The notes: a model not told the origin generated them from the sequence alone. 64,000 nt of DNA from Dehalococcoidia bacterium (GCA_034421575.1 DAOUKG010000017.1:19886-83885); one strand, 5' to 3'. Positions 716 through 53,929 are shown, numbered from the stretch's first letter. Numbers and translations: made by a program.

Positions 716-940
716 GTAACTGTTCAGACTCGGTGAGACATGCAGGAATTGTCCTGCGCTGTCATTCTGAGGGGCCCAGCGACAAAGAATCTACAATCTC
801 TCCCCCCGCCGAGGGAGATACAAAACCATCAATCTCTCCCCCGCCGAGGGAGATACAAAACCATCAATCTCTCCCCCACCGGGGGAGAGATACAGAGAGG
901 GGGTTCTTCGTCATCCACCTCACCTACTCTGAACATTCAC
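716..940 (+). mobile_element. MITE-like element, family Y, copy 1 (expanded by an internal 36-nt tandem repeat)
   Basis: The left end is gtaactgttcagactcggtgagac and the right end is ctctgaacattcac. The interior is homologous to copy 7 (51213-51359). No target duplication is evident. Confidence 0.6.
794..900 (+). repeat. tandem repeat, 2 full units (36 and 35 nt) plus a variant third unit
   Basis: The unit is caatctctcccc(c)cgccgagggagatacaaaaccat, at 794-829 and 830-864. The variant unit starts at 865. Each unit contains an imperfect hairpin tctccc...gggaga. Confidence 0.85.
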
Positions 941-1142
941 CACGCTCTTCCCCAATTTGACAAAGAAGAACACATGTACCACATTATCCATGAGCGGCTG
1001 CCGGCCGCCCACTCTCACGACAACGAGGAAGCGACACGATATGGCTCAACATGGCACAAATACAACAAGGGAAGACCTCGGAGAGCCATGCCCTTGCGCT
1101 TCTCCAACTTGCCCTGTGCCAAGCGCCCCGGGCGAAGTCGTG

Positions 1143-1211
1143 AACTTTACGATAACGAGAAAAATGCAACAGAATGCAACACCATGCAACGAATTTTCAA
1201 AAAATCTTCGG
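1143..1211 (+). repeat. phased-heptamer element, copy A (3 x ATGCAAC at exactly 10-bp spacing)
   Basis: atgcaac occurs at 1164, 1174 and 1184. It is preceded by aactttacgataacgag and followed by gaattttc. A two-unit relative (atggctcaac atggcacaaa) lies at 1041-1060. Confidence 0.7.
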
Positions 1212-1326
1212 CTGGACGGGCCCTCACCTCTCCCAGCACACCCACACATCCTGTCATTCCTCCGAAAAATTGCCCATCGCCAACCTCTCGTAGGGGCGGT
1301 TCGCGAACCGTCCCTAACCCTCACCG

Positions 1327-1335
1327 TGCTATAAT
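1327..1335 (+). promoter_or_regulatory. candidate extended -10 (TGcTATAAT) upstream of galU
   Basis: tgctataat lies 34 nt upstream of the GTG/ATG start. No convincing -35 is present. Confidence 0.3.
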
Positions 1336-1368
1336 CGCCCGCAACCGGAACTGGGAGGCCCTTAGCCG

Positions 1369-2235
1369 GTGATGAACGTGCGCAAGGCCGTCATTCCGAC
1401 GGCGGGACTCGGCACCCGCTTCCTTCCGGCGACGAAGGCCGTCCCCAAGGCGCTCCTGCCCGTGCTGGACACGCCGGTCATCCATCTCGCGGTGGAGGAG
1501 GCAGTTGCTGCCGGCATCGACCACGTGACCATCGTCGTCTCGCCGCATCAAGGGGCGATGGAAGCCTACTTCAATGGATCATCCGACGTGGCGCGGATAC
1601 TGGAGATGCAGGGGAGGTCCGCACTCCTCGAACGGGTATCCACCCTCACGAAGGCCGTGACCATCTCGTACGTCCAGCAGCCGGAGCCGCTCGGCAACGG
1701 TCACGCCGTGCTGGTCGCCCAGGAGGCGGTCGGTAACGAGCCATTCGCCGTGCTGTTCCCCGACGACGTAATCCTGGGCAGCGAGTCGACCGTCGGGCGG
1801 ATGGCTGAAGTCTATCGCGAGACTGGGGGGCCGGTCATAGGCGTGGCGGAAACGCCTGTGGAGACAATCCCGCAGAAGGGAGTCGTCACGCCCACGAGTC
1901 AGGACGGGCGGGTGTATGAGATATCAGGCATCGTCGAGAAACCGTCCATCGAGGAGGCGCCGTCGAACCTGGCCGTCGTCGGACGGTACGTGCTTCCACC
2001 TGAGATTTTCTCCGCTCTGGAGCGCACGAGACCCGGGGCAGGCGGGGAGATATGGCTGGCCGACGGGATCGCCGCGCTGCTCAAGACGCACCGGGGGACG
2101 GCGTACCGTTTCCCGGGCGAGCTGTTCGACACCGGAGTGCCCGGCGGGTTGCTGAAGGCGTCGATTCGAGAAGCTCTCGACCGCGACGACATGTCGGATG
2201 AGATCCGGGCGTACATTCGGGACTTGGCACTATAA
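1369..2235 (+). CDS. galU: UTP--glucose-1-phosphate uridylyltransferase
   Basis: The N-terminus KAVIPTAGLGTRFLPATKAVPKALLPV is the GalU nucleotide-binding motif. Length is 288 aa. The start could be GTG 1369 or ATG 1372. Confidence 0.9.
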   Translation: MMNVRKAVIPTAGLGTRFLPATKAVPKALLPVLDTPVIHLAVEEAVAAGIDHVTIVVSPHQGAMEAYFNGSSDVARILEMQGRSALLERVSTLTKAVTISYVQQPEPLGNGHAVLVAQEAVGNEPFAVLFPDDVILGSESTVGRMAEVYRETGGPVIGVAETPVETIPQKGVVTPTSQDGRVYEISGIVEKPSIEEAPSNLAVVGRYVLPPEIFSALERTRPGAGGEIWLADGIAALLKTHRGTAYRFPGELFDTGVPGGLLKASIREALDRDDMSDEIRAYIRDLAL

Positions 2236-2252
2236 GAGGAGGAGGCCGTCAC

Positions 2253-2948
2253 ATGAAGCTGGTCATCATCGGCTGCGAGTACACGGGCACGACGACGCTG
2301 GGGTTCAGGATTCGGGACTGGATACACGAGGAGCTTGGAGGTTGGGTCAAGAATGTGCACGACCACGGCAAGTTCCCGTACTCGGTGACGCACGAGCAGG
2401 AGTACACCCCCGTGCCGAGCGATTTCACCCCGGAGGAGCAGGAGCAGCTCTGGGCGTTGAGCACGCGGACGAAAGAGACGATCATGCGGCACAACGTCGT
2501 GTACCACGTATCGGGACTGTCGACGATGACGGGGATGAGGGACTCGGTGATGATCGGCCTCCACATCGAGGAGGGTATCTACGGGGAGCTATACCTGGGA
2601 TTCGAGGGACGGCGGGACTTCATGAGCCACATGGAGGACAAGATACTGAGCGGGGGCACGGATACCGTGCTCTGCCACGTTACCGCGAGACCGGAGGTGG
2701 TCCGCAGGCGGATGGCGGAGAACCCGCATCCCAACGGCATCCTCAAGGACAGGGACGTGGAGTTGGTGCTGCAGAGATTCCGGGAGGAGTTCGAGCGGTC
2801 GCGGCTGACCCGCAAGATCGCGCTCGACACGTCCGACGCCACGGTTGAAGAGACGCTACAGGACTTCGTCCGCAAGATTACCCCGCACCTATCGGAGCAG
2901 GACCGCGAGGGAATGGCCGCGGTAGCGGCTGGGAGGGGGGCGTCGTGA
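2253..2948 (+). CDS. P-loop NTPase-like protein (NadR/AAA_28-like fold suspected) with a non-canonical Walker A
   Basis: 231-aa ORF starting 18 nt after galU, preceded by aggaggagg. The N-terminus KLVIIGCEYTGTTTL resembles GxxxxGK[ST] but the lysine is replaced by Thr. The function is not recognised. Confidence 0.5.
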   Translation: MKLVIIGCEYTGTTTLGFRIRDWIHEELGGWVKNVHDHGKFPYSVTHEQEYTPVPSDFTPEEQEQLWALSTRTKETIMRHNVVYHVSGLSTMTGMRDSVMIGLHIEEGIYGELYLGFEGRRDFMSHMEDKILSGGTDTVLCHVTARPEVVRRRMAENPHPNGILKDRDVELVLQRFREEFERSRLTRKIALDTSDATVEETLQDFVRKITPHLSEQDREGMAAVAAGRGAS

Positions 2949-3055
2949 TTTGGCGGCGGGTTGCAAAGACCTCTTGAATTCTGTTTCCCATCTACAGGAC
3001 GAGGACTCTAGATTCCTCATGTCGGTTGTCACCGATGCCACGAAACATGAAAATT

Positions 3056-3124
3056 GTAGGGGCGATTCGCGAATCGCCCCTGCTTTCACCCTCACCCCAG
3101 CCCTCTCCCGCGAACGGGAGAGGG
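3056..3124. repeat. two GC-rich hairpin modules in the convergent gap between the 2253-2948 gene and panE
   Basis: ggggcgattcgcgaatcgcccc (3059-3080) and ccctctcccgcgaacgggagaggg (3101-3124) are both members of families seen elsewhere in the window. They could act as bidirectional terminators. Confidence 0.6.
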
Positions 3125-3133
3125 GGCAAATAG

Positions 3134-4072
3134 CTAGCTCCCCCGCTCTTCCATAGCGCGGGCGTGGTAGAGGGACAGGCAGGTGGCGATGAAGGAGTTG
3201 ACCGGCGTTGGGACGGACACCTCCGCGCCCATTCGGGCGACTGCGCCGTTGAGCACCTCGACCTCGATGGGGCTCCCGCGCATGAGGTCGGTGTACATGG
3301 ACGAGGTGTTCTCGCCCTTGATGCTGACGAAGTAGTCGACCGTGGTATCGACGTAGTCTGGCGGGATATCCACGCCTATGGCTTGAGATACGGCATACGC
3401 CTCGCGCATGATGCTCCGAACGAACTCCAGCGTTTCCGGCGTCAGGACGACCTGGTCGAAGGTCGAGCGGGTGATGCACGTCGAGCCGCTGAGGCCGCAG
3501 ATGTAGATGAACTTGCTCCATAGCTCCTTGGTGATGTCGTCGGCCACCTTGACGTCAATGCCCTCGACATCAAGCGCGTCACGGACGCGGGCGACGCGGT
3601 CCGACTCGCTGCCGTCCTCCTCGCCGAAGACGATGTCGGGGGCCTTGAGGCCGAACTCGCTGACGGCGCCCGGTCCCGTGCGAGTCGCGTCGATGTAGGT
3701 CAGTCCTGGGAGCACGGCTTCCTCTCCGTAGGCCGCCGTAAGGGCGTCGACGCTGCCCATGCCGTTTTGCAGCGTGAGCACCACCGTGCCGTCACCGACG
3801 GCGGAGCCAATCGTCGGCACTCCCGTGTGGTTGTCGTAGCCCTTGACGCAGTAGAGGACCAGGTCGGCTTTCCACGTTCCGTCCGGGCGCTCAACGGCGG
3901 ATGCCTGCACATTGAACGTGCCGGAAGCGTCGCTCTTGACGCTCAGGCCGTCACGGTTGATCGCCTTGAGGTGGCTGCCACGGGCAATGAAGACCACCTC
4001 GTGGCCGGCCCGACTCAGCACGCCGCCGAAGTAGCCGCCCACGGCCCCCGATCCCATTATCAGTATCTTCAT
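3134..4072 (-). CDS. panE: 2-dehydropantoate 2-reductase (ketopantoate reductase, ApbA/PanE family)
   Basis: Rossmann N-terminus MKILIMGSGAVGGYFGG. Length of 312 aa and overall layout are typical of PanE/ApbA. Confidence 0.8.
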   Translation of the reverse strand: MKILIMGSGAVGGYFGGVLSRAGHEVVFIARGSHLKAINRDGLSVKSDASGTFNVQASAVERPDGTWKADLVLYCVKGYDNHTGVPTIGSAVGDGTVVLTLQNGMGSVDALTAAYGEEAVLPGLTYIDATRTGPGAVSEFGLKAPDIVFGEEDGSESDRVARVRDALDVEGIDVKVADDITKELWSKFIYICGLSGSTCITRSTFDQVVLTPETLEFVRSIMREAYAVSQAIGVDIPPDYVDTTVDYFVSIKGENTSSMYTDLMRGSPIEVEVLNGAVARMGAEVSVPTPVNSFIATCLSLYHARAMEERGS

Positions 4073-4425
4073 GGCGTGGAATACCTCCGATGGGCAGGTA
4101 TGATATCCAGCGCAGACGGCGACCGCAAACGCCCCCTCTCAGTATCTCTCTCCCGGCGGGCTGGCAGGGACAGGTATTTGTCTATCGCCCCACTCTCCAT
4201 TGACCAGAAAGCAACCTGACTCTGTCATTCTGAGCGAAGCGGAGCGGAGTCGAAGAATCTCAAATGTCTGCCACAACGTAAGGCCAACATAGAGCGTTCT
4301 TACGCTGCTTTCACTCTCGATCACGATACAAGCGTGACTCTGGCTGTCCGGACTTGAGGTCAAACTCAATATCGAACCCTGTACGGGGTCTTGAATTCAT
4401 GCTGAAAGCATGATAACGTCATGAC

Positions 4426-4659
4426 ATGGCTAATCTTCAAGTAAAGAATGTGCCGGATGCTCTTCACGAGCGGCTCCGCCGTCATGCACGGGAGAATAAT
4501 CGCACCATAAGCGAGACTGTGCTAACTGCCGTGGAGCGCGAGCTAGCGATGTGGGAGTGGCAGACTCGTTTGGATCAGCATCCCAAGACCGATCTCGGTG
4601 TGGAGGCGGCAGTCTTGCTTCAGGAAGAACGCGCGAATCGTGACATGGAGATCGGATGA
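4426..4659 (+). CDS. ribbon-helix-helix (FitA/Arc-like) antitoxin
   Basis: 77-aa ORF. The motif LQVKNVPDALHERLRRHARENNRTISETV is typical of RHH antitoxins. It overlaps the downstream PIN gene by 4 nt. Confidence 0.75.
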   Translation: MANLQVKNVPDALHERLRRHARENNRTISETVLTAVERELAMWEWQTRLDQHPKTDLGVEAAVLLQEERANRDMEIG

Positions 4660-5057: not shown

Positions 5058-5094
5058 CCCCACCGTCAGAACAGGCGTGGTCGTTCTCCTCCAG

Positions 5095-6150: not shown

Positions 6151-6533
6151 GGTAGGGCGACCTCATAGCTCAGTATGAATCGGAATGTACACCGGCATCC
6201 GCGCCAATGCAAGCCGATTCGTATAGACCCGTTTTCCAGTGTGTCCGCTGAAGCATGCCTCGCAGTGCTGCGTAACGGTAAGGGTAGTTTGACTTCCCTA
6301 TAGAGGCCCCGCCGTGAACGTGTCATTCTGCGGCGGGGCTTCGTTTGCGACAATCCAGCTTCCTGATGGCAGCCAGGCGCGCTTAATCTTGCACCTTCTC
6401 CTTCTTGCCCTTCCTTCTTCGCGCTCGGTGACGCTCTCTTTCGTCCGGGACGCCAGCTCGAAGGATCGCCTCGAACGTGTCGCGGTCACCGTCAGGGACT
6501 ACTCCCTTGGGCTTCCGTCTCTGTGGCCTTGGG

Positions 6534-8009
6534 CTAGGCATCGTCGTCCTCCATACTGCTGTCGTGGCTGTAAGAAACCCCGGTGAAGTCGCTAAAGCTG
6601 GTGGAGGAACCTTCCTGTTCCGAATCCTTAAAGTACCCCGTCACCACGGCAACGGAGCCCTCGTGCGACGAAACTAGGTCACCGCCGAGGTCAATCTGCC
6701 CGATCGGTTCATCATTCAGCAGGACCCGGAAGCCGTTGACGTGCAGCCATCCGTATTTGCCATCCACCATCAGGCTCAGGGTGTTGCTCTCCCCTTCATC
6801 TGTTAGGAGCCCCGGCACCGTACCACTCAGAGCTGCCTCGTAGGTGCCGTCGGTCTTAAAGATGCGCAGGTACCAGTTACCGGCCGAAGTGACTATGAAG
6901 TACATGTACGGGTCGTCATCTTCGCCGTTATACCCGAACCTGAACCCGTAGTTCCAGTTCTGGTCACCGCTGCCATCGTAGGGGTTGGTAAATGTAGCGG
7001 AAAGTTGGAACTCGTTAGCCGTGGCCCCAAATTCCGCGACGGCCCAAGCCTCGATGTAGTCGTCATCGTCGTGAGGCATCTCGCCGCTGAGCGGCCCAAA
7101 TTCGGCAGCCGGTCCATTGGCCCATATCCTCAGCTTCTCTTGGATGGTGGTCTCCAAGACGGAGAACGACTGATCAATGGCCTCTGCGGAACTCAAACTC
7201 AACCTCAAGGTGTTCATGGCGACGACTTGGCCGTCCGGCGTGAACAGCGGTCCTCCACTATTCCCGAAGTTTATGGCCGCGTCGGTCTGTACCAGCTCGG
7301 CATCCTTCGCCGAACTGTAGCGGAAGGCCGAGATTATGCCCGTGGTGACGGATGCTTCCCCAGGCACAATGACTCTCCCCGGCCTTAGATCTGTAGGCAT
7401 AAGGTAGTCGTTTGGGTACCCGATGGCAATAACCTCGTCCCCGGCAAAGAGCGTGTTTGAATCGGCGAAAGGGACGCTCACGAAATCGCCGCAGCAGATT
7501 CCGAGCACGGCGAGGTCGCGGCGCGGGTCGAGCCAAATGACATCGGGTTCGTACCAGTCGGTATCGTTGACCTTGACGCGAAGGTCCGTAGCCTCATCGA
7601 CGACGTGGTAGTTCGTCAATATATAGGCGGCCTCGGTGTCTGCGTCAGTATCGAATATGAACCCCGTGCCTGTCGCATAAGGCAAATGTCCGAGCTTAGA
7701 AATCTTGACCACGGCGGGCCGGACTCGCTTCACCATGTCGCTCAATGATTCAGTCGGCGGTACTGGGGTGGCAATTGGTATCTCGATGGTACCGTCATCT
7801 TCGGCGCACTCCGGCAATCGAAGGCTTGCCGAGTCGTTGTCCGCCACGTCTGCGGGGATAACCTCTCCATCTGCACACGGGCCACTTTGAGCCCATGCCG
7901 TACCGTCAAGCACGCTGATGACAGAGAAAGCCGCAATAACGGCAATGAGCAAGCCCCCAGTCACTATTCGGCCAGCCTTTTTCGCCGATCTCGCTGTCAT
8001 CTCATCCAT
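6534..8009 (-). CDS. membrane-anchored trypsin-like serine protease (S1C/HtrA-like core) with an unassigned ~200-aa C-terminal domain
   Basis: Catalytic triad context: TNYHVV, RRDLAVL, GNSGGPLF. There is an N-terminal TM helix (GGLLIAVIAAFSVISVL). I chose ATG 8009 as the start because ggagg lies 8 nt upstream. The ORF stays open to 8117. Confidence 0.8.
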   Translation of the reverse strand: MDEMTARSAKKAGRIVTGGLLIAVIAAFSVISVLDGTAWAQSGPCADGEVIPADVADNDSASLRLPECAEDDGTIEIPIATPVPPTESLSDMVKRVRPAVVKISKLGHLPYATGTGFIFDTDADTEAAYILTNYHVVDEATDLRVKVNDTDWYEPDVIWLDPRRDLAVLGICCGDFVSVPFADSNTLFAGDEVIAIGYPNDYLMPTDLRPGRVIVPGEASVTTGIISAFRYSSAKDAELVQTDAAINFGNSGGPLFTPDGQVVAMNTLRLSLSSAEAIDQSFSVLETTIQEKLRIWANGPAAEFGPLSGEMPHDDDDYIEAWAVAEFGATANEFQLSATFTNPYDGSGDQNWNYGFRFGYNGEDDDPYMYFIVTSAGNWYLRIFKTDGTYEAALSGTVPGLLTDEGESNTLSLMVDGKYGWLHVNGFRVLLNDEPIGQIDLGGDLVSSHEGSVAVVTGYFKDSEQEGSSTSFSDFTGVSYSHDSSMEDDDA

Positions 8010-8396
8010 GACGCGCCTCCAAGGTGCCCTCTCAGGGCAGGATGTTGTCACTCTCCACAAGCTCCGCCATCCATCTACATGGCTCCAAGAGGGCGCGAGG
8101 CCACCCTGCCATTCCATGTAGAATCGACAAGAAGAGCTGTGGAGAGCTAAGCGCGAAGGGTACTAGGAAGTGGCATACTTATCAACAGGAGATAATCACC
8201 TCCCGCGAAAGCGGGAAGCCATGTTCGTCTTCTAAGCGGAGACATACCCCTAAAGTAACTCCCTCTCCCCCGGTTCACGGGTTACGCAAAAGCCTCCGAA
8301 AGCGGGTATCCACAGGGATAGGGAGTGTTGGTCTCATCAACTCTGGACACTTCCAGTAACCGGCCCCGTAGGTAGAGTGACGGGTCTAGTGCAATA

Positions 8397-8587
8397 GTGA
8401 GTGTTCAGTCTTGGTGAGGGGAACACCCTCACCCCCGTTCTGCAACGGGGCAGGCTCTAGCCCTCTCCCACGAACGGGAGACGGGACTGGATACCCGCCC
8501 CGTATCGTGGTACGGGGTGACGTTCTTTTGCGGGTATGACGGTGGCTGTGTATGTGTCGAGGGATCTCACGAAGTCTGAACAGTTAC
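8397..8587 (-). mobile_element. MITE-like element, family Y, copy 2 (inverted) with a perfect 8-bp target-site duplication
   Basis: gtgagtgttcagtcttggtga (8397-) matches the reverse complement of the 8567-8587 end, gtaactgttcagacttcgtga, at 17 of 21 positions. The flanking direct repeat gtgcaata lies at 8389-8396 and 8588-8595. Confidence 0.8.
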
Positions 8588-8821
8588 GTGCAATATGGAA
8601 CGCTTTACCTCGTTCGCCCGTCTGATGTAGAGTGGAACGCATGGACTCCGATCCAGATAGACCGCCATCTACCAAGCCGGAGGCCCGGCCCATGCCGGCG
8701 CGCTTCGGCTCCCCGCTCTTGTCTCCTACTACCGTCGTCGGGTTCGACACGCCACTTTGCATCCCATGCCCAATGACTTACGGGCTTTGCATGCACGAGT
8801 TCATCTTGAGGAATTGACGCC

Positions 8822-10117: not shown

Positions 10118-10161
10118 CGCATAGCGGTATGCCAAAATCGTTCCCCCGCGAAAATTCGGTC

Positions 10162-10170
10162 TGATATAAT
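10162..10170 (+). promoter_or_regulatory. candidate extended -10 (TGaTATAAT) upstream of tig
   Basis: tgatataat lies 40 nt upstream of GTG 10210. No convincing -35 is present. Confidence 0.25.
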
Positions 10171-10209
10171 CGACCCGTACGTTTGAACGAACTCGCGCAG
10201 GGAGCCCAC

Positions 10210-11568: not shown

Positions 11569-11628
11569 CTGGGCGTTCGACTGCGAAGGAAATGGGCGAG
11601 CGAGGGGCGGCTCCGAGTATTCGGGACT

Positions 11629-12294: not shown

Positions 12295-12339
12295 AGACCT
12301 CCCGCCTGGAGCATCCGAAAGAGCACTAAGGAGACACAC

Positions 12340-13044: not shown

Positions 13045-14370
13045 ATGGAAGAGGGGAAAATGACGACAGCACGGACAGGCGACACGAGCAACTACAAATG
13101 CTCATTCTGCGGCAAGTCGCAGCAGCAAGTTAAGCGAATATTTGCCGGACCTGACCGGGTGTTCATTTGCGATGAGTGCATAGGCCTGTGCGGACAGATC
13201 ATGACCGAGGAGAGCCAGGTTCCCGTCCGGCCGCCGACCTCCAAGGAAATCCTCTCCAAGAGCGTCACGCCGCGCTGGATCTACCGCAAGCTCGACGAGT
13301 ACGTGGTGGGACAGGAACGGTCGAAGAAGGTCCTGAGCGTGGCGGTGTACAACCACTACAAGCGGATCACGTCCAACCTCATGCCCTCGCCTGACGTGGA
13401 GCTGCAGAAGGCGAACATTCTCATGATGGGGCCTGCGGGCTCCGGCAAGACCCTCCTCGCGCAGACGCTGGCGAAGGTGCTCGACGTGCCATTCGCAATC
13501 GCGGACGCGACCTCGCTCACCGAGGCCGGGTACGTCGGTGAGGACGTGGAGAACATCCTCCTCCGGCTGATACAGGCTGCGGACTTCGACATCGAAAAGG
13601 CGCAGCAGGGCATCATCTATATCGACGAGTTCGACAAGATTGCCCGCAAGAGTCCGAACCCCTCGATAACGCGAGACGTCTCAGGCGAAGGCGTCCAGCA
13701 GGCGCTGTTGAAGATCATCGAGGGGTGCGTGTCCAACGTCCCGCCGCAGGGCGGGCGCAAGCATCCACACCAGGACTTCGTGCAGATCAAGACGGACGAC
13801 ATCCTCTTCCTGTGCGGCGGAGCGTTCGAGGGGCTGAACGAAGTCGTCGACGAACGCCTCTCCAAGGGCAGGGTCACGCTCGGCTTCAACTCCACCGGCA
13901 AGTCGGCGGACGGCCTGTCCGAGGACGGCGCGAACCTGCTCGATCACGTCATTGGCGACGACCTGCTCGACTACGGCTTCATCCCCGAGCTCGTTGGACG
14001 CCTGCCGATATCGGTCGGCCTTCAGAGCCTCGATAAGGAGGCGCTCGTTAAGGTCCTCACCGAACCGAAGAACGCCTTCGTCAAGCAGTACCAGAGCCTC
14101 TTCAAGATGGACGGCGTCGACCTGGAGTTCACGCAGGAAGCTCTCGAAGCCGCCGCCGATCAGGCCATCGAGCGGGGCACCGGCGCGCGCGGGCTCCGCG
14201 CCATTCTCGAAGAGACGCTGCTCGACGTCATGTACGAGCTTCCAACGCTCACCGGCGTTTCGCGCTGTGTGGTTGACGACGATTCCATCCGCAAGACCAA
14301 GGGCGTCCATCTCGTGCGCGAGGACGGCGAGGTCATGCCTCTCCCGCTATGGGAGCAGAAGTCGGCGTAG
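13045..14370 (+). CDS. clpX: ATP-dependent Clp protease ATP-binding subunit ClpX
   Basis: Zinc finger CSFCGK...[10 protein letters not shown], Walker [13 protein letters not shown] and Walker [11 protein letters not shown] are present. Length is 441 aa. Confidence 0.95.
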
Positions 14371-14442
14371 AGCGGGGTAAGATAGCCTAGCGCCCCCTCC
14401 TCAACCTGTAGTCGTCCCTCCGAATTCCCGACCGCCCTTCCT

Positions 14443-14592
14443 CAGAAAATAACCCCCGGCCAACCCATCGTAGGGGCAACCCTCGTGGTTGCCCGTCCCC
14501 GACACCACGCCACCACCACCCGTCATTCCGGCGAAGGCCGGAATCCAGTCCCCGGATCCTGCTGGCTCGTGCCAACCCCATTTTCATTGTTG
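14443..14592 (+). repeat. ~150-nt composite repeat, copy a
   Basis: It is near-identical to 53516-53692 apart from one nested insertion: aaaataacccccggccaacccatcgtaggggcaaccc.gtggttgcccgtcccc...cgtcattccggcg...ccggaatccagtccccggatcc.gctggctcgtgccaaccccattttcatt. Confidence 0.8.
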
Positions 14593-14653
14593 GAGGTATC
14601 GGCGGCAGCCGACATGAACGATCGCTACGAAAATAGGCCCCAATACCCCACAT

Positions 14654-14706
14654 CGTCATTCCCGCGAAAGAACGTCACCCCGTACCACGATACGGGGCGG
14701 GAATCC
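14654..14706 (+). repeat. composite hairpin unit A+B (one of six copies)
   Basis: The sequence is cgtcattcccgcgaaagaacgtcaccccgtaccacgatacggggcgggaatcc. Other copies lie at 182-235 (inverted), 8489-8542 (inverted), 17579-17627 (inverted), 22800-22842 and 52485-52537. Confidence 0.8.
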
Positions 14707-14726
14707 AGCATTCTCCTCCCTCCCGA

Positions 14727-15811: not shown

Positions 15812-15952
15812 GTAACTGTTCAGACTTCATGAGAGCACTCGACACACACAGCCCATCGTCATTCCCGCGTAGGCGGGAATCTAATCCCTCTCCCGTTCGC
15901 GGGAGAGGGCTAGGGTGAGGGTGTATTCCCCTCACCAAGACTGAACAGTTAC
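15812..15952 (+). mobile_element. MITE-like element, family Y, copy 3
   Basis: The left end is gtaactgttcagact and the right end is agactgaacagttac (14 of 15 inverted match). The flanks share only GTCAT. Confidence 0.65.
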
Positions 15953-16654: not shown

Positions 16655-16808
16655 ATACCAATTCGTTTTGAATACACCATGAATTGATGGTGACACCACC
16701 ACGTCATCCGTCATTCCGGCGTAGAGCTTGCCCCGTACTCCGATACGGGGCCGGAATCCAGAAAGGCTGGTCAGTCGACAATACGGCCTCATCACACCTA
16801 ATTATTGG
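16655..16808 (+). repeat. element X copy 1 (~150 nt; CCAATT...AATTGG-type ends)
   Basis: It runs ataccaattcgttttgaatacaccatgaattg...cgtcattccggcg[nested hairpin]ccggaatccagaaag...aatacggcctcatcacacctaattattgg. It overlaps the stop of the 16798-17364 gene. Confidence 0.75.
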
Positions 16809-17395: not shown

Positions 17396-17545
17396 ATACC
17401 AATTCGTTTTAACCACACCGTGAATTGGCTGTGACACAACCAACTTATCCGTCATTCCGGCGTAGAGCTTGCCCCGTACTCCGATACGGGGCCGGAGTCC
17501 AGAAAGCTCAATCAGCAAGAATACGGCCTCATCACACTCAATTGG
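17396..17545 (+). repeat. element X copy 2
   Basis: It has the same architecture and orientation as copy 1. It lies immediately upstream of the start of the same gene. Confidence 0.75.
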
Positions 17546-17680
17546 TGCTGCTAATCCAAGCGATAAAGAGATTTGGGGCCAGCCCCGTATCGTGGTACGG
17601 GGTGACGTTCCTTCGCCGGTATGACGGCATTTCAAAGGTCTCTCTCTCCGCAGGAATGGCAGGGGTTGTGCAAGGGTCTC

Positions 17681-19222: not shown

Positions 19223-19231
19223 GCAATCGCC

Positions 19232-21449: not shown

Positions 21450-21587
21450 CGCACCCCGCCCCACAACGTCATTCCCGCGAAGGCGGGAATCTAAGCCCCT
21501 CTCTCGTTCGCAGGAGAGGACTGGAGCTTGCCCCGCACTTGATACGGGGGTGAGGGTAGGAGAGCGGAATTGCAGGCCGGAACGAGG

Positions 21588-22756: not shown

Positions 22757-22885
22757 GTAACTGTTCAGGCTTCGCGAGAGCGCTCAATGCACGCATCCAC
22801 CGTCATACCGTCACCCCGTACTACGATACGGGGCGGGCATCCATAGGCGCGGTGGGTGTTCACCCCATGAACCCTGAACACTCAC
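22757..22885 (+). mobile_element. MITE-like element, family Y, copy 4
   Basis: It runs gtaactgttcaggcttcgcgagag ... aaccctgaacactcac. No target duplication is seen. Confidence 0.55.
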
Positions 22886-25476: not shown

Positions 25477-25500
25477 CCCCCCGGTGCGGCAGACCTGCCA

Positions 25501-25614
25501 GTAACTGTCCAGAGTCGGTGAGACCGCTCGACACACACAGCCCACCGTCATACCCGCGAAAGCGGGTATCCATAGGGCTGGGAGATGTTCACCCCACGAA
25601 TTCTGAACACGCAC
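25501..25614 (+). mobile_element. MITE-like element, family Y, copy 5 with a perfect 8-bp target-site duplication
   Basis: It runs gtaactgtccagagtcggtgagac ... ttctgaacacgcac. The flanking acctgcca lies at 25493-25500 and 25615-25622. Confidence 0.8.
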
Positions 25615-25694
25615 ACCTGCCATTCCCAATTTGACAACACAGAACAAATAATCTATTCTCTGTTGAGAACCCGACATGAAGGACCGACGCCCGC

Positions 25695-26784: not shown

Positions 26785-26887
26785 GCAACTGTTCAGATTT
26801 CGTGAGAGCTCTTCATGCACACAGTCGCCGTCATACCCGCGAAAGCGGGTATCCACAGGGGTGGGGGTATTCGTCTCATCACACTCA
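26785..26887 (+). mobile_element. MITE-like element, family Y, copy 6 (degenerate right end)
   Basis: It runs gcaactgttcagatttcgtgagagc ... ctcatcacactcac. The interior is homologous to copies 4 and 5. Confidence 0.5.
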
Positions 26888-26892: not shown

Positions 26893-26960
26893 TATAACAA
26901 GCCAGATGTCACAAAATGTCACACCATGCCACAAATTTCGAGTTTTTCCGTGGCTATCGT
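26893..26960 (+). repeat. phased-heptamer element, copy B (ATGTCAC, ATGTCAC, ATGCCAC at 10-bp spacing)
   Basis: The heptamers start at 26906, 26916 and 26926. The flanks are tataacaagcc... and ...aaatttcgagtttttccgtggctatcgt. Confidence 0.7.
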
Positions 26961-26981: not shown

Positions 26982-27060
26982 AACTTTACAATAACAAGCC
27001 GAAATGGCACGAAATGGCACCCCATGGCACAAATCTCGAGTTTTTCCATGGTTATCGTAA
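26982..27060 (+). repeat. phased-heptamer element, copy C (3 x ATGGCAC at 10-bp spacing)
   Basis: The heptamers start at 27004, 27014 and 27024. The flanks are aactttacaataacaagcc... and ...aaatctcgagtttttccatggttatcgt. Confidence 0.7.
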
Positions 27061-34462: not shown

Positions 34463-34549
34463 GGAACTCGCCTTGCGAGCCTTATCGAGCCCCGACGAGA
34501 ATCTAGGTGTAGATATTCTTGAATTTCTCATTGATATCCCCGATCAAGT

Positions 34550-34635
34550 CGTCATTCCCGCGAAAGCGGGAATCTATTCCTCATAGAGAGTATATGTGTA
34601 CCAAACTCTGGATTCCCGCTTTCGCGGGAATGACG
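34550..34635. repeat. 86-nt palindromic element built from two inverted copies of the GTCATTCCCGCGAAAGCGGGAATC hairpin module
   Basis: The left arm cgtcattcccgcgaaagcgggaatc (34550-34574) is the exact reverse complement of gattcccgctttcgcgggaatgacg (34611-34635). Confidence 0.85.
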
Positions 34636-34652
34636 AAAAATGTCAATATAAC

Positions 34653-36092: not shown

Positions 36093-36312
36093 CTATCTGG
36101 AAGTCCTTGAATCCAAATCCGTTCGTCATTCCCGCGAAAAGCCTGCCCCGTACCCCGATACGGGGGAGACCTTTGCATAACCACCGTCATTCCCGCGAAA
36201 ACGGGAACCTATCCTCTTCAGTGAGCACATACGGCACCTAATCTGGATTCCGGCTCTCGCGGGAATGACGGGATACGCCGACGATAGTTGAATGCGAAGA
36301 ACTGCGGCTTCC

Positions 36313-45622: not shown

Positions 45623-45935
45623 ATCCTTGCTTAGCCCCCTCTCCCGTTCGCGGGAGAGAGCTTGCCCCGTACTCGATACGGGGGCTGGGGTGAGGGTAAA
45701 AGGCACGACACTGCAACGTACCTCGCTTCTGCCGTATGCCTAAGAGGTCGTCTAAATGGCGCTCCGTTCACCCTGAGCTTGTCGAAGGGTGAAAGTGTAA
45801 TTCATGGTTCGACAAGCTCACCACGAACGGTTTCGATTGATTTACTCAGAGTAATTCGGCCCTAGCCGGAATGACGGTTCCGGTTGATTTGGGCTATACT
45901 CGCTTCGCCATTCCAACCCGTATCCGCTGACCGAC

Positions 45936-50200: not shown

Positions 50201-50383
50201 GTGGACGAAGTCCTCGTGAACTTCGATCCCGAACGCGCGCTCCGTGCTGCCGTCTCCTTCGCGAAGCTCTCCGAAACGAACCAGGTGCTGGTCTTCACCT
50301 GTCATCCGTCGGTCGTCGACCTGTTTCGCACGGCAACGTCCGAGGCAGGCATAGAGGCGCCAGACGAAGTATCGATAACCTGA
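47207..50383 (+). CDS. Rad50/SbcC-like AAA ATPase (YhaN/SbcE type) with a central predicted transmembrane hairpin
   Basis: The N-terminal Walker A is FHGPNEAGKSTLLEFV. There are long coiled-coil stretches. The C-terminus has LSRGTREQLFLSLRFGL (signature) and PVIVDEVLVNFD (Walker B). Hydrophobic residues ~487-533 correspond to nt 48665-48810. Confidence 0.8.
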   Translation: MKIREIRIDGFGRFAGQEFGPFERPVTIFHGPNEAGKSTLLEFVRRVLFGFPRRNARTNAYPPIAGGSYGGLLTLEGTDGRIYNVRRTSGRSFSGEVSVTSQLGDPLLESELTTLLGHHSQDVFEQVFAFTLDELYSDDLLSDANVNGQIYSAGMGVTSLQDVMASLDRSRNSIFRSGGSTQEIYSAANRLDDIDSTLREVADNAARYGELTERLQQVESELESLADRRRTLQTLHGRQTRLHSAWDSWNDLVSAEQELSALPPIEDFPTDGLNRLEKLEERVRIARQELEIASSRVRDAKQAADVAVPHVAILRNSSDIRSLQNGRTAFDGSVKDLPERETELEGHRRTLAETLQDLGPDWDEVRLEEFDLSIAVRQEITQYGERLREASAELSSRRATLVQDSTALEEAIESEGRAQRELEAAQRPDLNAEQIRQRRELIREASVQLGVVDRARQNLSNLQSQLERVVGSGAPVPDRRDAGRMGVPTFALVIMVLIPVGIAVAAFAFGVTGPIESLVFAGTLVLLALVVLAGYRVISGRVSGNDLVQSNLAASIRQQILQAEQDMSATESELSEIAGRLAIDEVNDRSLIAEEGSMDAEATNLAVWDSLSRTLRESGAIREQRKARKALSEGAVERASEQLGARSSEWQEWLQSRGLLESFTPETVDVLQRQVELGRSRLEDVRSWQTRIKAIEKDIQEYVEAVEPLATAFDVTFDAGDYRTVAAAADRLVELLEEVQESDRNRTDAEAELDEAERHFQDRKNVLEKAEEELAQLLRSGGAEEAEAFRARAGLYQRRSDLEDKNRAALDRLQRVSGPGEALHRLKNDLANSDPQSMNDEISNLELERDAVDAEIEQLSTERGSIQNELDSLVSEEESSRLRMERNTLLEQISVHARDWARLTLARELLEEARRKFERERQPGVVRHAQEFFADITEGRYRQVYAPLGEQTITVTDADGTTKQPSELSRGTREQLFLSLRFGLIRELGQRTEPLPVIVDEVLVNFDPERALRAAVSFAKLSETNQVLVFTCHPSVVDLFRTATSEAGIEAPDEVSIT

Positions 50384-50384
50384 A

Positions 50385-51233
50385 TTGCCCGATTCTCAAG
50401 GAAGACCTGACATTTCGACTCCCGATCACTACGGTCGCCCCCGTCTCGCCTGCATCCTCCTGGACGCCCTGTCAGCCTCCGGGACTGACATCGACAACCT
50501 CAAGCCTGATGACCTGGCCCCGTTTGAGAACCTCCACATTCGAGGACGTGCCCCCACGCGCGAGCTTGCGGGACTCGCCGGAATTCGTTCCGGTATGCGA
50601 GTCCTCGATGTCGGCTGCGGCATAGGAGGCCCCGCGAGGACACTGGCGTTGAACTACGGTTGCCACGTGACCGGCATCGACATGGCCGCCAGCTACGTTG
50701 AGGCCGGTCGAATGCTGATCGAACGCCTCGGCCTCAGCGAGTCGGTATCACTATCAGTCGGTAACGCGCTCGCCCTCCCCTTCGACGACGGCACGTTCGA
50801 TGTCGTGTGGATGCAGCACATGGGTATGAACGTGGCAGACAAGGACCGCCTCTTCCGCGAAGCCCGCAGGGTGCTGCGCTCCGGCGGCAGACTCGCCCTT
50901 CACGAAATACTCGCGGGCGATGTCTCACCTCCTCACTACCCTGCGCCCTGGGCCGACGAGCCATCGTTCAGCCACCTCGTTGACGCAGACCGTCTGAGGG
51001 CGGCACTCACGGAGAGCGGCTTCCGGGAGATCACATGGCATGATGACACTCCCAAGTCCATACAGTGGGCACGAACACCGCCGGACAGGAATGCCGGCCA
51101 TGCGTCGTCGTCCGCGTTCGAAGCACTCCTCGGACCGAACTATGGGGAGCGCATCGAGAACGCCCGTCGCAACCTCATCGAAAGACGCATAGAGATAATA
51201 CAGGCGGTGTACGTAGCTGTTCAGAGTTCGTGA
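50385..51233 (+). CDS. class I SAM-dependent methyltransferase (Methyltransf_11-like, small-molecule type)
   Basis: It has VLDVGCGIGGPARTLA. The TTG start lies 2 nt after the Rad50-like stop. The last 6 codons and the stop are supplied by a MITE terminal repeat. Confidence 0.8.
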   Translation: MPDSQGRPDISTPDHYGRPRLACILLDALSASGTDIDNLKPDDLAPFENLHIRGRAPTRELAGLAGIRSGMRVLDVGCGIGGPARTLALNYGCHVTGIDMAASYVEAGRMLIERLGLSESVSLSVGNALALPFDDGTFDVVWMQHMGMNVADKDRLFREARRVLRSGGRLALHEILAGDVSPPHYPAPWADEPSFSHLVDADRLRAALTESGFREITWHDDTPKSIQWARTPPDRNAGHASSSAFEALLGPNYGERIENARRNLIERRIEIIQAVYVAVQSS

Positions 51234-51359
51234 GATATGCAGGAATTGTCTGTCATTCTGAGAAGCCCAGCGACGAAGAATCTCCAATCTCTCCCCCGCC
51301 GGGGGAGAGATACAGAGAGGGGGTCTTCGTTATCCAACTCACAGAGACTGAACACTGAC
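51213..51359 (+). mobile_element. MITE-like element, family Y, copy 7 with a perfect 8-bp target-site duplication
   Basis: It runs gtagctgttcagagttcgtgagat ... cacagagactgaacactgac. The flanking cggtgtac lies at 51205-51212 and 51360-51367. Confidence 0.8.
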
Positions 51360-51375
51360 CGGTGTACGCGGCCGC

Positions 51376-51406
51376 TTGAAAGCGGACCGCGCCCTTTTGC
51401 TATAAT
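51376..51406 (+). promoter_or_regulatory. candidate sigma70-type promoter for the BI-1 family gene
   Basis: TTGAAA (51376-51381), 19-nt spacer, then an extended -10 TGcTATAAT (51398-51406). It lies 47 nt upstream of ATG 51453. Confidence 0.35.
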
Positions 51407-51452
51407 TAAACGAGTGACGACACCTTAGTCTTTCAGGGAGAATTGCTTCGTC

Positions 51453-52181
51453 ATGTCCACACAAGAGTACTTCGGCGTACCCCTCTACGACAGAACCCGG
51501 GCGAATGCCATCTATACCGACGCGATGACCCGCATGTACGGCCTCGTCGCGCTTGGGGTAATCACGACTGGGGCGACGATCTGGATCGGCGACATGACCG
51601 GCGTGGGAGAGGTCTTCTACAGCCTCGGCTGGATCGGCTGGCTCCTGATGATCGGCATCATGTTCGGAACGCTCATGGCCGCCAGCGCCGTCGTCGCCAA
51701 GGGCAACACTGCCCTTGGGACCGTCCTCTATCTCGCCTTCACCGGCATTGAAGGACTGTTCCTCTCGCCGATACTCATCAGATTCGCCGGCGACACGATA
51801 GGCGTGGCCTTTCTGCTGACGGGCGGGCTGTTCGTCGCCATGACCGCCGTCGGCATGACCACCAAGAGGGACTTGACGAAGCTGGGGCCGATGCTGATCT
51901 TCGGCCTCATCGGGCTGGTAATCATCAGCCTCATCAACATGCTCCTGATCCAGTCAAGCGGCCTGTTCCTGCTCATCAACATCCTCCTTCTGCCCCTGTT
52001 TCTCGCGCTGACGGTATGGGAGACGAAGCAGATGAAGGAGCTGGCGCAACAAGCTGCTATGGAGGGCGACCAGAAGGGCGCCACACAGGTGGCCGTCATG
52101 GGAAGCATCGGCCTCTACCTGAACGTGCTGAACATCTTCCTCATCATCCTCAACCTGCTGGGGTTCGTCTCGAACGACTAA
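51453..52181 (+). CDS. Bax-inhibitor-1/YccA-family membrane protein
   Basis: 242 aa with about 7 TM helices. Typical motifs are MTRMYGLVALGV... and LFLALTVWETKQM...NIFL.IL. Confidence 0.85.
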   Translation: MSTQEYFGVPLYDRTRANAIYTDAMTRMYGLVALGVITTGATIWIGDMTGVGEVFYSLGWIGWLLMIGIMFGTLMAASAVVAKGNTALGTVLYLAFTGIEGLFLSPILIRFAGDTIGVAFLLTGGLFVAMTAVGMTTKRDLTKLGPMLIFGLIGLVIISLINMLLIQSSGLFLLINILLLPLFLALTVWETKQMKELAQQAAMEGDQKGATQVAVMGSIGLYLNVLNIFLIILNLLGFVSND

Positions 52182-52579
52182 GCGGGAAGAGGGCGGAGTT
52201 CAACACGAGTCCACTGGGGCAACCCCGCTAAGAGGGTGTTGCCGAATTCCGTGAACCCCGGTTCGTGGCGAGCTTTCCATGAATCCCGTTCGTGGTGAGC
52301 CTGTCAAACCATCAACCGCCCCTCGACAGGCTTTCAACTAGCTGCTCAGGACAGGATGAAGATTTACCGCAGAGAACACAGAGAGCGCAGAGGGGAAAAG
52401 AGGCCGTGCGGCCACGAGGAAATACGTTCGGCCTGAGCCTGTCGAAGGCCCTCTTATCCCCTTCACTTTGAATCTACCGCGAATCCGTCATTCCCGCGAA
52501 AGAACGTCACCCCGTACCACGATACGGGGCGGGAATCTAGGAGTATTCTCGTCCCGTTGGACCGGACCGTCGTCGGTCG

Positions 52580-53257
52580 CTACTTAGGCCCGAGAATCGC
52601 AAATCCGAGCACGATTAGCGCCACTGCGCTTGCGAACCCAATCGGACCGTACTTCGACATCCTGGCGTTGCTCGATGTGCTGAACTTGTCGATCCCCCAG
52701 GCACAGGGGCCAAACGCCACCCCTCCCAACCCAGCCCAGAACGGGAAAGCCCCCAGGAGGAGGAACGCGTTCTTGAGGCCGTAGACGAACCACAGCGCGG
52801 TGAATAGGTTGAAGAAGCTTCCCACCACGTTGGGGACGGACTTTACACTCGAAATGAAGAGGAAGAATTCCCTGGCGATAGGAAGGAATATCCCCCCGGT
52901 CAGATAGGAGTAGAACATCAAGTATCCTAGCGCCAGCAAGAGCCACACCCAGAGGCGTCGCGCGCGTCTCCCGTGTACGCTGAAGGTGGGCCTCACACCG
53001 TAGAGCCAGTATGAGACGGGACCTCCAACGAGGAGTCCTCCAATGCAACCGGCAATCCCGAAGAGCACCGCCTGCCCCGGGGGCACCCGGTCAAGGGCGC
53101 CGACACCTTCGAACTCCGTATACAGGTTGAGGATCGTCGTCGCGGCCCCGATGCCCGCGGCCATGATGCCGATGGCCAGGCCAAACCGAATGCGCGTCCA
53201 GTCACGCTGGACGATTTCCTGTTCAGACAGTCTCAGGGCCTGGGCCTGCATTGCCAT
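52580..53257 (-). CDS. hypothetical polytopic membrane protein
   Basis: I chose the start at MAMQAQ. The ORF is open to 53347. It has about 6 hydrophobic helices and I recognise no family. Confidence 0.45.
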   Translation of the reverse strand: MAMQAQALRLSEQEIVQRDWTRIRFGLAIGIMAAGIGAATTILNLYTEFEGVGALDRVPPGQAVLFGIAGCIGGLLVGGPVSYWLYGVRPTFSVHGRRARRLWVWLLLALGYLMFYSYLTGGIFLPIAREFFLFISSVKSVPNVVGSFFNLFTALWFVYGLKNAFLLLGAFPFWAGLGGVAFGPCAWGIDKFSTSSNARMSKYGPIGFASAVALIVLGFAILGPK

Positions 53258-53418
53258 TCCTACTCTCCGCGTCGCTTCCGCCGGTTGTACGGCTCTATTG
53301 AACCGTCTAGTCGAAAATCCCCGAACAAAATAATAGCACACCCTCACGTTTGCTCACTACGGACACGGACTTGCGCGTGCATCCATGACTTGGACGGAGA
53401 CGAGGCAATGCCGTTGCC

Positions 53419-53929
53419 ATAACTATTCAGACTCGGTGCCGAAACCCTCTCTATGCACATCACCGTCATACCCGCGAAAGGAGACCTTTGCGTAACCTCA
53501 GCACCCGTCACTCCTCTGAAAATAACCCCCGGCCAACCCATCGTAGGGGCAACCCTTGTGGTTGCCCGTCCCCAATACCGCGCCACCACCCGTCATTCCG
53601 GCGTAGAGCTTGCCCCGTACTCCGATACGGGGCCGGAATCCAGTCCCCGGATCCCGCTGGCTCGTGCCAACCCCATTTTCATTCCAGGTGGTGAGGGTGG
53701 CAGCCCTCATGAAATATTCCGAATGAAGCGGAGCGGTATGAGGAATCTAGGGTTACTGTCCTCGAAGCGGAGTTCCGTAGCTGGTACGGCACGAATGAGG
53801 ACGGCAGGGCATCTTAGATTCCTCGCTGCGCTCGGAATGACAGGCTGCTACGTACGTTACGCAAAGGTCTCCGAAAGCGGGTATCCACTGGGGTAAGGGG
53901 CGTTCGCCTCATCCAGACTGAACGCTCAC
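53419..53929 (+). mobile_element. MITE-like element, family Y, copy 8, swollen to ~510 nt by nested repeat modules
   Basis: It runs ataactattcagactcggtg ... cagactgaacgctcac. The flanks share cgttgcc (53412-53418 and 53930-53936; 7 of 8). Confidence 0.65.
53516..53692 (+). repeat. ~177-nt composite repeat, copy b (inside family-Y copy 8)
   Basis: It is the same as 14443-14592. The gaag loop of the ccggc/gccgg hairpin is replaced by gtagagcttgccccgtactccgatacgggg. Confidence 0.8.

Follow-up and report, generated by a model that had tools for sequence, protein, structure and literature searches.

Insertion sequences (IS) of the IS66 family have terminal inverted repeats (TIRs) that start with 5'-GTAA (the ISfinder rule). 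Within this family, the ISBst12 group is recognised by ends that open with GTAAC... together with duplications of 8 bp and a transposase of the DDE_Tnp_IS66 type; we know of no report of active transposition in the group before 2026. Its members, such as ISBst12 of Geobacillus stearothermophilus and ISDge4 of Deinococcus geothermalis, carry one DDE_Tnp_IS66 ORF of ~450 aa and neither tnpA nor tnpB. In ISDge4 the TIRs are GTGACTACTCAGCA and GTAACTGCTCAGCA, the transposase has 449 aa and the DR measures 8 bp (PMC12898284); IS66-family ISs of Paracoccus have 8-bp DRs too (PMC3281130). Canonical IS66 elements (IS679, ISPpa5a, ISPpa7) have the organisation tnpA-tnpB-tnpC and measure ~2.5-2.8 kb. 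Classical MITEs, such as Correia/NEMIS of Neisseria, RUP of Streptococcus pneumoniae and MITEPsy1/2 of Pseudomonas syringae, are short (~100-500 bp), non-coding, multi-copy and mostly intergenic; they have TIRs, target-site duplications (TSDs) and the ends of an autonomous IS, and fall into subfamilies with different interiors.

The window analysed here, 64,000 nucleotides of DNA from an uncultured Dehalococcoidia bacterium, contains eight repeats that, as a family, share these MITE traits. They are very probably MITEs that arose by internal deletion from a single-ORF IS of the ISBst12 group (IS66 family) and have no coding capacity. They thus add a new member to an established class of mobile DNA and do not found a class of their own. 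Unlike the classical MITEs, they have a TSD of 8 bp rather than TA or another short duplication, a partner in the IS66 family, and a central hairpin that seems to serve as a landing site for further small elements. The window differs from the described ISBst12 systems in its host and in holding non-autonomous derivatives only.

The end pattern GTRASTGTTCAGWCTTNGTGA, with at most 3 mismatches, matches the window 13 times, against 0.02 in shuffled sequence. These matches are both ends of E1, E2, E3, E5 and E7, the left ends of E4 and E6 and the right end of E8; all eight elements lie where the first-pass annotation had placed them. Profile HMMs trained solely on copies from other genomes retrieve 8 of the 8, plus one extra half-copy. 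The two ends are not equivalent, an L-type (GTAACTGTTCAGACTTCGTGAGA) being distinguished from an R-type (GTGAGTGTTCAGTCTTGGTGAGG). The best TIR pair in the window belongs to E3 (18/21) rather than, as first proposed, to E2 (17/21). The elements are 103-511 bp long, share 74-92% pairwise identity and are all located between genes or at gene ends; mechanical ORFs overlapping E1, E2, E4 and E8 gave no match in Pfam.

Six of the eight are type-1 MITEs. The canonical form is represented by E5 (25501-25614, + strand, 114 bp), with a perfect TSD ACCTGCCA at 25493-25500 and 25615-25622 (8/8). E2 (8397-8587, - strand) is inverted and carries extra hairpin modules; its TSD GTGCAATA, at 8389-8396 and 8588-8595, is also perfect (8/8). 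The half-copy, a ninth and partial one at 8294-8352 (+ strand), represents the right-hand half of a type-1 element and covers profile positions 53-110 (nhmmer E = 6e-11); the end of an M2 comes before it. E3 (15812-15952, + strand) includes a CTCTCCCGTTCGCGGGAGAG hairpin and has a degenerate TSD. E4 (22757-22885, + strand) has a CCCCGTA..TACGGGG hairpin within its central loop, a right TIR matching at 15/21 and no TSD; E6 (26785-26887, + strand; profile E = 8e-27) also has none, and its right TIR bears an 8-nt internal deletion (CTCATCA^CACTCAC). E8 (53419-53929, + strand) has a mutated left end, ATAACTATTCAG, and contains a nested insertion, M2. Its TSD is 7/8 (CGTTGCC), or 8/8 (CCGTTGCC) if each boundary is shifted by 1 nt, and the element without its nested insertion and one CGAAAG measures 114 bp.

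The two type-2 MITEs are E1 (716-940, + strand) and E7 (51213-51359, + strand). The interior of E1 reads GTCATTCTGAG...AGAATC and continues with a CTCTCCCCCGCCGGGGGAGAG hairpin; it contains a 35-bp unit repeated 2.7 times (794-888), and the element is without TSD. E7 is flanked by a perfect TSD CGGTGTAC at 51205-51212 and 51360-51367 (8/8). Its insertion site is 3 codons ahead of where a methyltransferase gene originally stopped; the last 6 codons and the stop (..TCG TGA) of that gene now come from the TIR of E7. The TSD is thus absent or degenerate in 4 of the 8 window copies, and the earlier reading of three perfect duplications and a fourth at 7/8 agrees with the sequence.

A pattern scan of related DNA found the family in at least 100 stretches from at least 43 assemblies; among the matches listed (100 stretches, 43 assemblies), 41 are labelled Dehalococcoidia. 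We compared the flanks of 69 end-pairs from the window and 100 related loci with 205 shifted controls. The flanks match at 7/8 or better in 40 of the 69 (25 at 8/8, 15 at 7/8), whereas none of the 205 controls reaches 7/8, their maximum being 6/8. The duplicated 8-mers have a different sequence at each site and therefore lie outside the repeat itself, which disposes of the possibility that they are a conserved part of it. Being 8 bp long and varied, they also do not correspond to the TA target duplication of IS630/Tc1-mariner-type elements.

An autonomous partner with the same ends occurs in related genomes. At locus L049 (1128-2580), a 1453-bp element with GTAACTGTTCAG... ends is bounded on both sides by a perfect TSD, GAAAACGC, and is filled by a single 451-aa ORF (1217-2572). 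Beyond L049, 8 further loci hold IS copies, some intact, some frameshifted or nested; the elements at L085 and L060 measure 1503 bp and 1500 bp. In Pfam, the L049 ORF matches DDE_Tnp_IS66 (1e-42) and zf-IS66 (2e-6); with the NCBIfam model transpos_IS66, whose cut-off is 180 bits, it scores 276.5 bits and the L085 ORF 248.8 bits. The transposase contains the motifs VHADETGW, LVSDFY, CWAHLLRD and NNPAERSLR. Its identity to the IS66-family transposases of sequenced plasmids stays below 32% in every case, so that the family placement is based on the profile scores together with the anatomy of the element. The ends of the IS, GTAACTGTTCAGACTTGGTGAGG and GTAACAGTTCAGACTTGGGGGG, start with GTAA, and the partner thus combines the TnpC-type DDE domain, the 8-bp TSD and the GTAA ends of the IS66 family. 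A homologous transposase and 8-bp DR are found in canonical IS66 elements (PMC3281130), but the partner lacks their two accessory genes; its single ORF, without tnpA/tnpB, and its size are those of the ISBst12 group, with ~1.45-1.6 kb and an 8-bp duplication (PMC12898284). The TIRs of both start with GTAAC or GTGAC, followed by ..TCAG. The termini, which the first-pass annotation could not match to any described IS family, are therefore of the IS66/ISBst12 type: GTAACTGTTCAGAC here is close to GTAACTGCTCAGCA of ISDge4 (PMC12898284).

The left end of the IS, GTAACTGTTCAGACTTGGTGAGGTGAAT, matches the R-type ends of the MITEs over about 28 nt. The type-1 consensus (111 nt) matches only nt 1-28 (26/28) and nt 1433-1503 (64/71) of the L085 element, its first 28 and last 71 nt, and is therefore an internal-deletion derivative. 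We propose that the DDE transposase of ~450 aa, encoded by full-length copies in other genomes, would bind the terminal repeats of ~25-30 nt that the MITE retains and join the ends to a target whose two strands are cut 8 bp apart; repair of the gaps would then yield the 8-bp duplication. A type-1 MITE (~113 bp) retains 28 nt from the start of the IS and ~71 nt from its end, and the other subfamilies have the same ends with unrelated interiors. A tblastn search with the transposase found neither a transposase nor a remnant of one within the 64-kb window, as had been noted before. For this reason we infer mobilisation of the MITEs in trans by the partner transposase. Any current activity of the family would be an inference too, and the partner IS is presumed to reside within this particular genome. 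The source IS is common in uncultured Dehalococcoidia.

Comparison with relatives, those with empty sites being about 90% identical, reveals differences in presence and absence. E1 is absent from relative L103. E2 has a clean empty site with a single target copy in L104 (GTGCAACA) and is empty in L103 too; E3 is absent from L103, where its flanks abut. The junction of E4 is empty in L107, an exact empty site though E4 itself has no duplication. In the opposite case, a copy in L104 occupies a site that is empty in the window. Both E7 and E8 are shared with L101, at 86-94% DNA identity, the E8 orthologue being without the nested M2. The TSD excess, the partner with the same ends and the empty sites of E2, E3 and E4 with a single target copy bear out the initial view of these repeats as transposase-mobilised non-autonomous elements.

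The density of copies had also been read as suggesting a large genome-wide burst, but a recent burst is not supported. Since window copies are just 74-92% identical, their accumulation points to an old and lineage-wide process, not a recent one; moreover, L101 has both E7 and E8, half of the copies have lost their TSD and at least 43 assemblies are concerned. A lineage-specific enrichment is plausible, the relative LUOR22 (~90% identical) being without E1-E4 and E7.

Three other explanations were weighed against derivation from an IS66-family element. The interiors are a mosaic of small hairpins, also found solo or as inverted doublets without TIR. Like many solo intergenic repeats of this genome, they are built from short, GC-rich hairpin units, in which they resemble enterobacterial BIMEs and REPs and the NIMEs and dRS3 of Neisseria. 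In the central unit, ATTCCCGCGAAAGCGGGAAT, the form is ATTCCC-N8-GGGAAT, which we take to be that of dRS3. The elements could accordingly be REP/BIME-like mosaics, in which hairpin modules are spread by a Y1 transposase (RAYT or IS200/IS605-type) or by recombination and the TIRs are merely the outer palindromic modules; the presence of small units at one exact position of the central loop, without duplication, would agree with this. We nevertheless find it very unlikely for the elements as a whole: Y1-type insertion, as in REP/REPIN-RAYT systems, makes no target duplication, yet 8-bp TSDs occur family-wide; the ends identify a DDE element of the IS66 family; and the central hairpin is itself part of the 3' subterminal region of the full-length IS. 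Units of the REP, BIME and NIME kinds are not bounded by TIRs and TSDs, nor do they derive from a DDE transposon. Such an origin may well fit the solo hairpin modules, but not the TIR-bounded elements.

The short copies could alternatively be remnants of full-length IS that decayed independently by deletion in place and were never mobile as short elements. Related genomes do hold frameshifted and truncated IS copies, and in the window several copies lack a TSD and show damage at their ends. In-place decay would leave random junctions, however, whereas the elements fall into discrete length classes (~113, 125 and 154 bp) whose deletion junctions recur unchanged in dozens of species. Intact TSDs directly flank short copies, the empty sites of relatives fit the short element exactly, and at the six sites compared no full-length IS is found at the orthologous position of a MITE; we regard this origin as highly improbable.

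That the repeats are structured regulatory elements selected by the host (sRNA, terminator or insulator), with a functional terminal complementarity and no transposon ancestry, is hardly credible: they do fold better than shuffled sequence (z -2.4 to -9.3), each lies between genes or at the end of one and some keep a constant distance to a promoter-like motif, but TIRs and internal palindromes predict good folding anyway, an Rfam search gave no match, close relatives differ in sites, subfamily interiors are unrelated despite the same ends, and TSDs and a transposase partner explain those ends.

The IS66-type transposon does not explain all repeats of the window, which also contains solo hairpin modules. 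Interior modules occur outside the TIR-bounded elements, for example as an inverted doublet at 34549-34576 and 34609-34636. The central hairpin (GTCATACCCGCGAAAGCGGGTATCC), which lies within the 3' subterminal part of the full-length IS, seems to be favoured for insertion. Hairpin units of ~25 nt are found in its loop exactly after GAAAG or GAAG, in one orientation and without duplication, and at two loci two of them stand in tandem. M2 (53481-53871, unstranded), an unrelated second MITE-like element, sits in the central hairpin loop of E8; it has a 16-bp TIR, GAGACCTTTGCGTAAC, and a 6-bp duplication, CGAAAG, at 53475-53480 and 53872-53877. A second case of M2, in L041, has the duplication TACAAG and lies in a different hairpin loop. 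Finally, a promoter-like motif, TTGACAAnnnAGAAC, stands 14-16 nt from an IS or MITE in one orientation 8 times, against ~0.05 expected. From these observations we tentatively raise an idea that we consider rather unlikely: the IS66-type MITE would be only the outermost level of a nested arrangement, with a hairpin landing pad, M2 and placement beside a promoter-like motif.

No earlier description of MITEs derived from the ISBst12 group was found in the literature searched. With the present assignment, a repeat family of intergenic DNA in many uncultured Dehalococcoidia gains a name and a partner, and the ISBst12 group of IS66 is extended to a new phylum-level host. The family can be masked and labelled in annotation, is an expected repeat hazard in assembly and binning, and is usable as a source of presence/absence markers between closely related MAGs. 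The six terminal codons and stop supplied by E7 are a small, direct effect on coding sequence. Surprises could remain in the nested hairpins and the promoter-adjacent insertion: if the targeting is real, it would mean structure-directed insertion into hairpin loops, or the guidance of a DDE transposase to a promoter occupied by protein, and either route, if true, would be a mechanism undescribed for the IS66 family.

The window is an ordinary bacterial chromosome of about 60% G+C, with genes that include those for trigger factor, ClpX, exonuclease VII, DnaX and an SMC-like ATPase. The eight elements placed in it by the first-pass annotation are E1 (716-940), E2 (8397-8587, inverted), E3 (15812-15952), E4 (22757-22885), E5 (25501-25614), E6 (26785-26887), E7 (51213-51359) and E8 (53419-53929). 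All eight regions were read and every coordinate is right. With up to three mismatches, the degenerate terminus matches 13 times in the window, against 0.02 in dinucleotide-preserving shuffles. Five elements (E1, E2, E3, E5 and E7) have two recognisable ends; the right end of E4 is weaker (15/21), the left end of E8 is mutated and the right end of E6 carries an 8-nt internal deletion. All eight are also detected by profile HMMs whose training copies come solely from other genomes, and so is a ninth, half-length copy at 8294-8352. The two ends of an element are not equivalent: the L-type reads GTAACTGTTCAGACTTCGTGAGA and the R-type GTGAGTGTTCAGTCTTGGTGAGG. The description of the elements as non-coding holds, the overlapping mechanical ORFs having no Pfam match.

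Three copies, E2, E5 and E7, are flanked by perfect 8-bp target-site duplications (TSDs; GTGCAATA, ACCTGCCA and CGGTGTAC), exactly where they had been reported, and the flanks of E8 agree at 7 of 8 positions, again as reported. A hidden TSD of E4, sought with the empty site in a relative (L107), was not found. A scan for the terminal pattern, with one genome per species, returned at least 100 stretches from at least 43 assemblies; among the matches listed, the assembly labels are 41 Dehalococcoidia, one Chloroflexota and one Chthonomonadales. The copy in the Chthonomonadales-labelled MAG (JBBROJ010000064.1, L030:412-587) is a 176-bp element with the same terminal inverted repeats (TIRs) and a perfect TSD, CTTTCTGG; its presence there is due to horizontal transfer or else to a binning error.

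In the window and 100 of these loci, every forward end was paired with the reverse end that follows it, giving 69 pairs. The 8-mers directly outside the ends are identical in 25 pairs and match at 7 of 8 positions in 15 more. At least 7/8 is thus reached in 40 of 69 pairs and in none of the 205 controls, which lie 20-40 nt farther from the ends and reach 6/8 at most: the 8-bp duplication is a property of the family. The first-pass annotation had considered that the octamers might be part of the repeat; they vary from site to site, and are therefore target DNA. The observation is confirmed, and its interpretation as a family of MITEs is supported.

Four of the end-pairs lie about 1.45-1.5 kb apart. 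One of them, L049:1128-2580, is a 1453-bp element within a perfect GAAAACGC duplication, filled by a single 451-aa ORF. The ORF matches Pfam DDE_Tnp_IS66 (1e-42) and zf-IS66, and scores 276 bits on NCBIfam transpos_IS66 (cut-off 180). A second element, L085 (1503 bp, 469-aa ORF), behaves in the same way. An ORF bounded by termini of this type (GTAACTGTTCAG), which had been suggested as the autonomous partner to look for, is thus present in related genomes. The window itself contains no transposase, as first read, nor any remnant of one: tblastn with the L049 protein gives chance-level matches only, all with E > 0.5. Further tblastn hits, at L015, L017, L021, L033, L058, L060 and L092, are intact, frameshifted, truncated or nested IS copies. 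At L021:1341-4145, an IS copy is split by a related one, 72% identical in protein, so the family has been active there more than once. The 1490-bp TIR pair at L065:3752-5241 was considered as another autonomous element; it has a perfect TSD, but its ORF is an IS4-family transposase, so it is a MITE that contains a nested IS of another family.

Within the IS66 family, this layout of a single ORF in 1.5 kb is that of the ISBst12 group. A published member of the group, ISDge4 (PMC12898284), combines TIRs GTGACTACTCAGCA and GTAACTGCTCAGCA with an 8-bp direct repeat and encodes a 449-aa transposase; the comparable end in our elements is GTAACTGTTCAGAC. Classical IS66 members generate 8-bp repeats too (PMC3281130). 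The termini had not been recognised as those of a described IS family. The transposase profiles, the single-ORF anatomy, the likeness to ISDge4 TIRs and the 8-bp repeat place them in one, and we identify the family as IS66/ISBst12-derived. Compared with plasmid-borne IS66 transposases the protein is distant, with <32% identity to any. A search of the literature on IS66-derived MITEs, and on MITEs in Dehalococcoidia, found nothing relevant.

The intergenic DNA of the window is also full of short GC-rich hairpin modules without TIRs, including GTCATTCCCGCGAAAGCGGGAATCC, CCCCGTAnnnnnnTACGGGG and CTCTCCCGnnnnCGGGAGAG (180-269, 14439-14708, 16708-16761, 17449-17627, 21467-21519, 34549-34636, 36124-36205, 45637-45683, 52485-52537 and 57117-57140). 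Like the units of BIME/NIME mosaics they are strung together; they also occur solo or as inverted doublets. A REP/BIME-type origin agrees with these mosaics and fits them only, being at odds with the TSDs and the DDE partner of the elements.

The type-1 MITEs, described below, have a central hairpin. Among 101 hairpins of this type, 63 have a simple loop and about 20 an added hairpin unit of ~25 nt (AACGTCACCCCGTAC..GGGG or AGCTTGCCCCGTAC..GGGG). The unit sits at one precise loop point after GAAAG or GAAG, in a single orientation and without duplication; the receiving hairpin is GTCAT..CCCGCGAAAG^CGGG.., where ^ marks the insertion point. Such sites lie at 14660-14708, 52485-52537 and, inside E2, 8483-8545, and also in L020, L050, L061, L080 and L101, with two units in series in L050 and L080. 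They result from either site-specific insertion or the spread of pre-formed composite units. A second, unrelated MITE-like family, M2, with TIR GAGACCTTTGCRTAAC, occupies the loop of the E8 central hairpin (53481-53871) and another hairpin loop at L041:2535-2860, with 6-bp duplications CGAAAG and TACAAG, respectively. Further M2 ends lie at 238-254, 8281-8297 and 36170-36186.

The relation of the MITEs to the IS is direct. At its left end, which precedes the transposase gene, the IS reads GTAACTGTTCAGACTTGGTGAGGTGAATTGG and matches the R-type ends of the MITEs over ~28 nt. A 111-nt consensus of twenty short copies from many species is collinear with both ends of L085 (26/28 with nt 1-28 and 64/71 with nt 1433-1503); the type-1 MITE (~113 bp) is thus derived from the IS by internal deletion. 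The hairpin at its centre, GTCATACCCGCGAAAGCGGGTATCC, originates in the 3' subterminal part of L085, overlapping the transposase stop codon. Other subfamilies combine the same ends with unrelated interiors: the ~154-bp type 2 (E1, E7) and classes of ~125, 159 and 175-190 bp. That each MITE is an IS copy decayed independently in place does not fit, since the length classes are discrete with common junctions and intact TSDs surround short copies. Two other repeat families, at 4132-4362 (copies in L020, L043, L048, L079, L080 and L098) and 57055-57205 (copies in L009 and L091), have hairpin modules in common with the type-2 MITE, but not its TIRs.

Standard DDE transposition is the best-supported mechanism. 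An IS66-type transposase would bind the retained MITE ends, target DNA would be cut with an 8-bp stagger, and repair would produce the 8-bp duplication. The anatomy of the elements, the partner in related genomes and the differences in site occupancy are demonstrated; the action of the partner in trans, and its existence in the source genome, we infer.

Insertion may follow a preference. A promoter-like motif, TTGACAAnnnAGAAC (TTGAC[AG]A), occurs 14-16 nt outside eight R-type (that is, IS left) or unclassified ends (953-971, 25627-25645 and L107:13635-13653; also L005, L015, L066, L073 and L088), against ~0.05 expected, and at this distance from none of the L-type ends. In E5 the perfect TSD separates element and motif, which makes the motif part of the target DNA; its fixed distance may reflect an insertion preference. 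We considered the flank motif TTGACAAnnnAGAACAcATGTaC as a LexA (Cheo) box and do not claim it, the second half-site being poorly conserved. Often 150-250 nt past the TTGACAA motif, and close to MITEs, lies a recurrent conserved unit of AACTTTACAATAACGAG followed by three AATGCAACA-like 9-mers, with no Rfam match (1120-1200, 26895-26935 and 26990-27035; L005, L007, L045, L073, L106 and L107).

The closest genome compared, a 3.48-Mb Dehalococcoidia MAG (OZ244816.1, L101), is syntenic with the window over 41-62.5 kb at 86-94% DNA identity. A second relative, LUOR22 scaffold_224 (L102, L103 and L107), covers most of the window at ~80-93%. Empty sites, which the first-pass annotation had proposed to look for, are seen for three elements. 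The E2 site in L104 reads ...gacgggtctaGTGCAACAtggaacgc..., with one target copy and no element, and is empty in L103 too; the flanks of E3 are joined directly in L103, and those of E4 abut in L107. E1 is missing from L103, where the spacer has diverged, and L102 lacks E7 in a spacer too diverged to serve as a clean empty site. The reverse case is a copy that L104 carries between its CNNM and trigger-factor genes, at a place unoccupied in the window.

E1-E8 fold better than shuffled sequence (z -2.4 to -9.3), as expected for palindrome-containing TIR elements; a selected structured RNA is contradicted by the site polymorphism, and no known RNA family is supported, since scanning the window for Rfam families and tRNAs gave no match.

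Two larger differences were also seen. The ~300 bp at 52240-52545, from the Bax-inhibitor gene to the next gene, are missing in L101 and hold further short repeats. A 2.1-kb segment with a trypsin-like protease gene (6223-8355) is missing in both L103 and L104; its junctions are ..attcGTA|tagacc.. and ..ttccaGTA|accggcc..., and its right edge adjoins the half-MITE at 8294-8352.

Some sites have changed content. At the E7 site, window and L101 (9797-9930) have the same TSD and rare GTAGCTG end variant around unrelated interiors; at the E5 site, L107 has a type-2 copy (13663-13850) a few bp away. Both cases suggest that copies have converted one another or that one spot has been hit repeatedly. 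At the E8 site, L101:11689-11990 holds two tandem MITEs with one copy of the target octamer between them, which looks like a second insertion reusing the duplicated target.

E7 and E8 are occupied at the same sites in L101, so both insertions predate the split of the two lineages. All window copies are intergenic except E7, inserted in a methyltransferase gene (50385-51233) three codons ahead of its former stop; the E7 TIR now provides this gene with six codons and a stop codon, and likewise in L101. Among themselves the window copies share 74-92% identity, no more than they share with copies of other species (84-90%), and half of them are without a TSD now. A large genome-wide burst had been suggested; these figures argue against a recent one. 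LUOR22 is without E1-E4 and E7 and has one MITE only across the ~50 kb compared. The data are compatible with accumulation in this lineage.
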